Source: a virus (lineage: Duplodnaviria > Heunggongvirae > Uroviricota > Caudoviricetes). Taken from it: a stretch of DNA of 42,872 nucleotides. The translations under genes were made by a program, and so were the position numbers. Shown one piece after another: positions 25,351-25,985 of this stretch. Every line of letters starts with the position of its first letter. Position 1 is the stretch's first letter. Location: positions 1 to 42,872 of the IMG/VR virus record IMGVR_UViG_2718217859_000008. One strand, 5' to 3'. Below the pieces are notes generated by a model. That model saw only the letters and a list, made by a program, of their open reading frames with translations. It did no database searches and was not told where the DNA came from.

Positions 25351-25611
25351 GGTTCTTTCCACCATCTAAAAAATAATTCTTTAAAATACCTGACATGCAA
25401 TACAGAAAAAAACACAAAACCATACCTTAAATAAAACCTCATCATAAAGCAGATATGCATGGATAAACTACAAGACGAGATATAAACCACCCTGCATTTT
25501 AAATAAACAATAAACAAAATCAGAAAAACAGTTCTGCTCTATGGTTTACATTCAAAATTATCATTTATACTTTTCAGAACATCACCAGCAAGGCATAAAT
25601 AAGGAAACTAA

Positions 25612-25947
25612 ATGAAGTGGATTGTGATTGATACAGTTATCCAGCCATCATGTGGAATATCTTTTTCAGCCATATGGAGTAAAATAAAATTAATAATCTG
25701 GTATCAATCGGATGTTTTCTTACCTCCTGAAAGTATATTTACGCTGACTCACACAGGTATCGTACTCAATAACAAAGTGCTACCTGTAACCATTTACAAC
25801 GTTGTACCATTCAATAAAAGATTCTGGGATTTAATCAAAAACAGCCAGGAATGCCCTGCAAATTCAGATAACGTATTTAATGAATGCTTTAATAACCGTT
25901 GCATTCTGCAAATATGCCCCTACGGACTAAAACGACACAGGCCATAA
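25612..25947 (+). CDS. hypothetical Cys-rich protein (111 aa) in a strongly AT-rich island
   Basis: ATG at 25612 with AAGGAAA upstream; ~230-bp AT-rich promoter-like region; codon usage unlike flanking phage genes. Confidence 0.4.
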
Positions 25948-25985
25948 TAAGTTTACGCATGTCTGATAGAATCTGTAGAACCTGT

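Follow-up and report, generated by a model that had tools for sequence, protein, structure and literature searches.

An AT-rich island among the late genes of a lambdoid prophage carries a divergent iraL-type gene

What does a short AT-rich island encode when it interrupts the late genes of a prophage, and is it a newcomer there? We addressed this question for a stretch of 42,872 nucleotides (positions 1 to 42,872 of IMG/VR virus record IMGVR_UViG_2718217859_000008), here called the window. A sequence-only reading of the window had drawn attention to about 600 bp lying between a truncated nanS-p gene and a TerB unit, and had proposed that this segment is recently acquired cargo, with a promoter-like region and an ORF for a Cys-rich protein, expressed independently of the phage programme. 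The compositional part of this proposal was confirmed by a sliding GC calculation. Positions 25366-25960 have a GC content of 32.8%, whereas the entire window has 51.4%. Among all 595-bp windows in the 42.9 kb (mean 51.5%, standard deviation 5.7%) this is the minimum, and the runner-up has 39.2%. The non-coding portion (25366-25611, 246 bp) is poorer in GC than the ORF portion, at 28.5% versus 36.0%. The ORF itself (25612-25947, plus strand) starts with ATG, encodes 111 aa and is intact, with no frameshift or stop. It is preceded by a Shine-Dalgarno sequence, AAGGA (25601-25605), 6 nt upstream of the ATG, and its orientation is opposite to that of Q, holin and lysozyme, so that the ORF and its good ribosome-binding site also stood as first described. 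No RNA family was matched by Rfam in the interior of the island, where only a flanking STnc100-family gene was detected. A repeat search of 25300-26100 returned short pairs only, which are probably due to chance, and a tRNA search of the window returned none.

The gene family had been missed in the sequence-only reading, and the homology check that it suggested places the ORF product in the characterised IraM family. The NCBIfam model NF007393, "anti-adapter protein IraM", matched with 163.9 bits (cut-off 121, E=1.2e-48), in an alignment that spans residues 1-110 of the 111 in the ORF product and positions 1-113 of the 114 in the model. The crystallised part of IraM (residues 1-78, PDB 8TWD) is 72% identical to the ORF product (E=6e-33), and an identical protein is present in RefSeq as WP_038813346.1, under the name "anti-adapter protein IraM". 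The region 25300-26100 is found with 100% identity in several complete E. coli genomes. A wider homologue search yielded 28 clusters at 90% identity, all from Escherichia or unnamed sources, and those with a name were called IraM. The Pfam scan of the 111-aa ORF gave no match at E<=0.01, and homologues of its product carry a precomputed match to PF11183. These sequence, fold and RefSeq matches rule out the view of the ORF as an unknown Cys-rich protein. Judged by its sequence, the island is a known and already annotated prophage cargo gene, which would encode an RssB anti-adaptor of the IraL/IraM type. The best explanation overall, which we consider very probable, is an iraL-type moron cassette placed among the late genes of a lambdoid prophage, with an STnc100-family sRNA gene on one side and nanS-p on the other. 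The finding is thus real but ordinary: the gene belongs to a known family, is already annotated and occupies the prophage slot usual for it. Its practical value lies in the correct annotation of the window.

An AlphaFold model of the ORF product, built on a 15-sequence family alignment, contains seven strands and a helix (residues 69-77). Residues 1-78 are predicted to form a PmrD-like antiparallel beta-barrel core (core pLDDT 72-87) and residues 79-111 a flexible C-terminal tail, with pLDDT below 50 at residues 82-111. The best match of the model in the PDB is IraM itself (8TWD_A, TM 0.86, rmsd 1.6 Å), followed by PmrD (4HN7, TM 0.73); the resemblance of IraM to the PmrD fold has already been described (PMC10844676). 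The description of the protein as Cys-rich applies in a mild sense: five of its 111 residues are Cys (C14, C81, C92, C97 and C102), and four of these five are within the final 31 residues, so that the enrichment amounts to a four-Cys tail that is characteristic of the family. Across 15 diverse IraM-family proteins, C81, P82, C92, C97, C102 and P103 are invariant, C14 is not, and the remaining tail positions vary. The resulting pattern, Cx10Cx4Cx4C, is encoded at 25852-25947 (residues 81-111). In the structural study of IraM, residues 79-107 were cut off and the tail was called less conserved and flexible (PMC10844676). The low pLDDT of the tail speaks neither for nor against a metal-dependent fold, and a literature search on zinc, metal or cysteine chemistry of IraM returned nothing relevant.

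Within the family, the ORF belongs to the IraL type rather than to the IraM of K-12, as judged by sequence. Its product is 88% identical to CFT073 IraL (c1429, formerly ycgW, also present in Shigella) and shares with it the length of 111 aa and the four-residue C-terminal extension, although the C-terminus reads QQSP in CFT073 and RHRP in the window allele. The K-12 protein (b1160, 107 aa) is 64% identical overall, with the same predicted fold and the four-Cys tail. The two genes also differ in their surroundings, as K-12 iraM is part of a remnant beside e14, whereas the gene described here belongs to the late genes of a lambdoid prophage that looks complete. A small cluster, P0001, is 94% identical to the ORF product. 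The coding sequence is 94.0% identical to CFT073 iraL (316 of 336 nucleotides, with 13 amino-acid substitutions), and the promoter region from -100 to +33 is 93.3% identical. Both values are below those of a survey of all known iraL copies in 2014, which had at least 95% identity in the coding sequence and at least 96% in the promoter (PMC4045071). As these figures are the outcome of a survey and not a definition, the window allele is best called a divergent iraL. An iraL-type gene is present in approximately 1440 of 5426 complete E. coli genomes (~27%). Among 1445 iraL-bearing complete genomes, the gene is at least 99% identical to the window allele in 15, 95-99% identical in 8 and 90-95% identical in 1422. 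The window allele is a rare variant, found in about 1% of iraL-bearing genomes (15/1445).

Next, we consider the position of the gene. On its left is a truncated nanS-p gene of 111 aa (25015-25350, minus strand; possible starts at 25350 and 25365) that contains DUF1737 (Pfam, 56 bits) and the start of the esterase domain. It aligns solely to residues 1-116 of a full-length homologue of 668 aa, with 72% identity, and RefSeq marks an identical sequence as a pseudogene that lacks its C-terminus. On the right, Pfam matches identify a DUF3927 and TerB pair, and the location first given for the island, between a truncated nanS-p and a TerB unit, is borne out by these matches together with DUF1737 and the pseudogene mark. 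The right edge of the cassette is set by an STnc100-family sRNA gene (25992-26166, minus strand), convergent with the iraL-type gene, which matched the full length of Rfam model RF02076 (positions 1-206) with 93.7 bits (gathering score 47). Its homologue in phage 933W is the spacer between stxB and nanS-p. STnc100 has been related to the PasD sRNAs, and PasA/PasD are associated with esterase genes (2026 preprint 10.64898/2026.05.13.724894). The minus strand carries the Q-like gene (DUF1133/antitermQ) as well as the genes for holin, lysozyme, terminase and the structural proteins.

The limits of the cassette were drawn by comparison with 933W, as it had been suggested that related prophages be checked for absence of the segment. 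Phage 933W has both flanks and no cassette: homology on the left ends at the nanS-p start codon (25351), homology on the right resumes at ~26020, downstream of stxB, and ~260 unrelated bases occupy the place where the cassette would be. From the nanS-p start codon to the terminator of the STnc100-family sRNA gene, the cassette is ~670 bp long. That terminator is a hairpin, GCCCCTC-(4 nt)-GAGGGGC followed by TTTTTATATA (25997-26014, minus strand), and was detected by a terminator scan. Located 50 nt beyond the iraL stop, it is the sole terminator-like element downstream of the gene. Scanning and folding of both strands revealed no canonical intrinsic terminator for iraL and no U-tract on the plus strand; an equivalent hairpin follows CFT073 iraL. 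Any read-through from iraL would be antisense to the sRNA. The proposal of independently expressed cargo is supported by the opposite strand, the lowest GC content in the window, the absence from 933W and a promoter assigned by homology, whereas a terminator of its own was not seen. The unlike composition, the promoter inferred by homology and the presence or absence among related phages together support the interpretation of the island as a phage moron.

The same slot is occupied in other phages. CFT073 iraL resides in a lambdoid prophage by potB, in the order Q, tRNAs, DUF3927, iraL, DUF1737', holin, which is the same lambdoid position as in the window (DUF3927, iraL, DUF1737/nanS-p, holin). 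The further neighbours differ: CFT073 iraL has tRNAs and IS200 nearby, and the window gene a YdeO-like AraC regulator and TerB. A gene for iraL beside DUF1737/nanS-p is also found in ATCC 25922 and in phage vB_EcoS-640R1. More distant relatives are found in Stx2 phages (Stx2_EH2201, phage 2851 and Stx2c phages), again in this slot, oriented divergently from nanS-p/yjhS and downstream of stx2B and the sRNA. They share the promoter layout with the window gene, including a PhoP-box-like repeat 112-113 nt before the ATG, but are only 76-77% identical to it in amino acid sequence, with dS >1, and fall into a 107-aa subtype and a separate 111-aa subtype. The 107-aa type (75.7% identical) has stx2B on one side and yjhS/nanS-p on the other in Stx2c phages and in some of the Stx2a phages, and the 111-aa type, P0004, is also located between stx2 and nanS-p. 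A type of 108 aa is flanked by nanS-p and, on its other side, by LpxR. Many Stx2-phage records carry no annotation under the IraM-family match, and a literature search on IraM in Stx2 phages found no paper that discusses such homologues. For reference, IraM-family genes with products 75.7-77% identical to the window protein are at 4001-4324 in the Stx2a phage Stx2_EH2201 locus and at 3001-3336 in a second locus. Synonymous divergence between the subtypes of the family is saturated (dS 1.0-1.9). As diverged alleles occupy the same slot, and as more than a quarter of complete E. coli genomes have an iraL-type gene, the association of the IraM family with the nanS-p slot is old. The suggestion of recent acquisition is therefore not borne out, since diverged alleles fill this slot in CFT073, ATCC 25922 and phages that include several Stx2 phages.

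The AT-rich region upstream of the gene (25352-25611, ~28.5% GC) is 92.8% identical to the region upstream of CFT073 iraL, and this makes it possible to place a promoter by homology. [quoted passage not shown] 2014, PMC4045071). The 32-nt CFT073 5' end matches 25579-25610 of the window with two mismatches, where no match is expected by chance. The transcript of the window gene would thus start at A 25579 and have a 5' UTR of 33 nt (25579-25611). The putative promoter (25545-25571, plus strand) consists of a -35 TTTACA (25545-25550), a 15-nt spacer and a -10 TATACT (25566-25571). The window, CFT073 and ATCC 25922 agree fully in both hexamers, whereas phage 640R1 has a C-to-T change in the -35. 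The likeness to CFT073 extends from the hexamers, mapped start and 33-nt 5' UTR to the hairpin downstream. A generic scan for the sigma-70 consensus called no promoter 5' of the ORF, as it permits spacers of 16-18 nt only and this one has 15 nt. The only promoter that it called, at 25663-25690, was discarded because it is inside the ORF. The promoter-like character first noted for this region is therefore endorsed by homology to the mapped iraL promoter and not by the generic scan.

By alignment, the region upstream of K-12 iraM has no similarity to that in the window. The regulation of K-12 iraM, which depends on PhoP and Mg2+, can therefore not be transferred by homology, and the window gene need not share it. 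The AT-richness of the upstream region probably makes it a target of H-NS, and expression is probably sensitive to H-NS and temperature. This fits published data on CFT073, where iraL mRNA is up 1.6 log2 at 37 °C compared with 23 °C (PMC12890032) and also rises in a fur mutant.

Structural work on IraM provides a map of the residues through which such a protein may act. IraM binds both domains of RssB and blocks the face that receives sigma-S (PMC10844676). In the first cluster of RssB-contact residues, I4, I6, W22, K26 and I42 are identical in the ORF product. The second cluster has C14, F18 and W30 identical with conservative changes T13S and L75I, and the third has I61 and Y62 identical with conservative changes H63N and I64V. 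P66 is identical as well. [quoted passage not shown] IraL binds RssB, raises the level of RpoS and doubles its half-life in log-phase CFT073, and with its native -100 to +33 region it also raises RpoS in K-12 (PMC4045071).

These observations are consistent with the following scheme. In the lysogen, the gene would be transcribed from its own sigma-70 promoter, to judge from the homologous CFT073 promoter, and against the Q-dependent late transcript. Its product, predicted from sequence match and modelled fold to be an IraM-like, PmrD-like beta-barrel, would bind the adaptor RssB, as suggested by the conserved contact residues. With RssB bound, RpoS (sigma-S) would not be handed to ClpXP and would accumulate, and the general stress regulon would be up, by analogy with IraL of CFT073 and Shigella and with IraM of K-12. 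In short, the protein would sequester RssB and stabilise RpoS in the lysogen. Expression from the AT-rich upstream region would probably respond to H-NS and temperature and possibly to PhoP. After induction of the prophage, the Q-antiterminated late transcript would pass through the gene in antisense. Such a prophage may give its host an extra, independently controlled route to RpoS stabilisation, which is known to increase stress tolerance and has been linked to pathogenic E. coli and Shigella.

An intact gene may nevertheless be a silent or decaying passenger that is unexpressed or inactive and contributes nothing to the host. The truncation of the adjoining nanS-p indicates that deletion has hit this part of the prophage, the allele is rare (at least 99% identity in 15 of the 1445 iraL-bearing genomes), the 15-nt spacer is suboptimal, the upstream region is a likely H-NS target, and the protein has 13 substitutions compared with IraL. 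On the other hand, the dN/dS of the ORF compared with IraL is 0.31 (0.1-0.2 compared with other subtypes) and the reading frame is free of frameshifts and stops. The -35, -10, transcript start and Shine-Dalgarno sequence are intact and identical to those of the functional CFT073 promoter, the RssB-contact positions are all identical to those of IraL, and the family-invariant residues are all kept. We therefore regard a silent passenger as improbable. An even less probable alternative is that the protein is a PmrD-like connector, which acts on another response regulator such as PmrA/BasR or has a role directed at the phage, and that RpoS stabilisation is not its main function. PmrD (PDB 4HN7), the connector of the PhoP-PmrA pathway, has the same small beta-barrel fold and binds a receiver-domain protein, phospho-PmrA, and IraL and IraM contact RssB differently from one another. 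The conserved position by stx, sRNA and lysis genes across phages hints at a role linked to the phage. However, the protein is ~15% identical to PmrD and 58-72% identical to IraM, PmrD has PmrA as its partner and has no four-Cys tail, the residues that contact RssB are conserved, and the nearest characterised relative, IraL (88%), binds RssB and stabilises RpoS. A last view can be dismissed with near certainty, namely that the reading frame arose by chance in AT-rich spacer DNA or is what erosion has left of nanS-p, the latter having been named as a possible refutation; only the location beside the truncated nanS-p speaks for it. When the island was shuffled 5000 times by mononucleotide, a frame at least this long occurred in just 7 shuffles, the family, structure and annotation matches are strong, the island has no similarity to the body of nanS-p, and purifying selection acts on the ORF (dN/dS 0.1-0.3).

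With an iraL-type moron cassette as the preferred explanation, three small leads go beyond what is known of the family: a conserved PhoP-box-like repeat, the invariant four-Cys tail and the unannotated IraM homologues by stx2. The repeat, TGTTTA-TTGTT-TATTTA, is at 25500-25516 in reverse orientation (minus strand), from -79 to -63 relative to the inferred transcript start. It has one mismatch to KGTTTA-N5-KGTTTA, and no other site in the window has so few. When the upstream region was shuffled, a comparable site occurred in 4.7% of the shuffles. In CFT073 the repeat is identical, with the same position and orientation. The P0004 type has a perfect match at the same position and orientation, and the Stx2_EH2201 type has one mismatch, in the other half-site than in the window. 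The E. albertii type, P0013 and K-12 iraM have two mismatches each, with the site of K-12 iraM closer to the ATG, and the P0018 promoter contains no such site at two mismatches or fewer. Shared ancestry of these homologous promoters could explain part of this conservation. In the study of IraL, PhoP was not among the factors tested (PMC4045071). A function of the repeat is a hypothesis drawn from sequence, under which expression is possibly PhoP-responsive.

Taken further, this hypothesis becomes a joint model for the iraL/iraM cassettes in the nanS-p slot, including those downstream of stx2, that we put forward tentatively and consider rather doubtful as a whole. These cassettes would share a reverse PhoP box ~112 nt before the ATG, would be activated by PhoP and silenced by H-NS, and would encode in the Cx10Cx4Cx4C tail a module that responds to metal or redox state and governs how stable or active the anti-adaptor is. 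If this is true, cassettes with a PhoP box would couple RpoS in lysogens to signals of low Mg2+, acid or antimicrobial peptides. IraL has so far been described as a log-phase factor only.

Between Q and the lysis genes there is a run of stress-related cargo, which consists of an AraC-family regulator, TerB, DUF3927, the sRNA and iraL. The AraC-family regulator (26980-27876, minus strand; 247 aa from the RefSeq start) matched YdeO with 147 bits and GadX with 98 bits, both far below the equivalog cut-offs, and by its sequence is probably a prophage regulator of acid resistance of the Psr/PatE type, as in EHEC. The idea that the prophage regulator AppY induces iraM, which would have linked this AraC-like neighbour to the anti-adaptor, was dropped, as iraP, iraD and iraM were not up-regulated in the AppY paper. 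The module from Q to lysis (22731-28871) is ~98% identical to that of prophages with an identical iraL allele (strain 09-00049 was compared). The structural and early regions differ from those of the prophages with the same allele, which indicates that the window prophage is a mosaic. In relatives with the same allele, IS66 is inserted at varying points of the module, and in GB089 it separates TerB from the AraC-like gene; the window is free of IS66. Between holin and lysozyme is an ORF of 213 aa (24056-24697, minus strand) that had no match in Pfam or NCBIfam and is annotated as hypothetical in RefSeq relatives; it adjoins an ORF of 122 aa on the opposite strand (23678-24046, plus strand). 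Finally, a sok antitoxin RNA (30528-30702, minus strand; Rfam RF01794, 110.6 bits) points to a hok/sok-type toxin-antitoxin locus in the early-right region.
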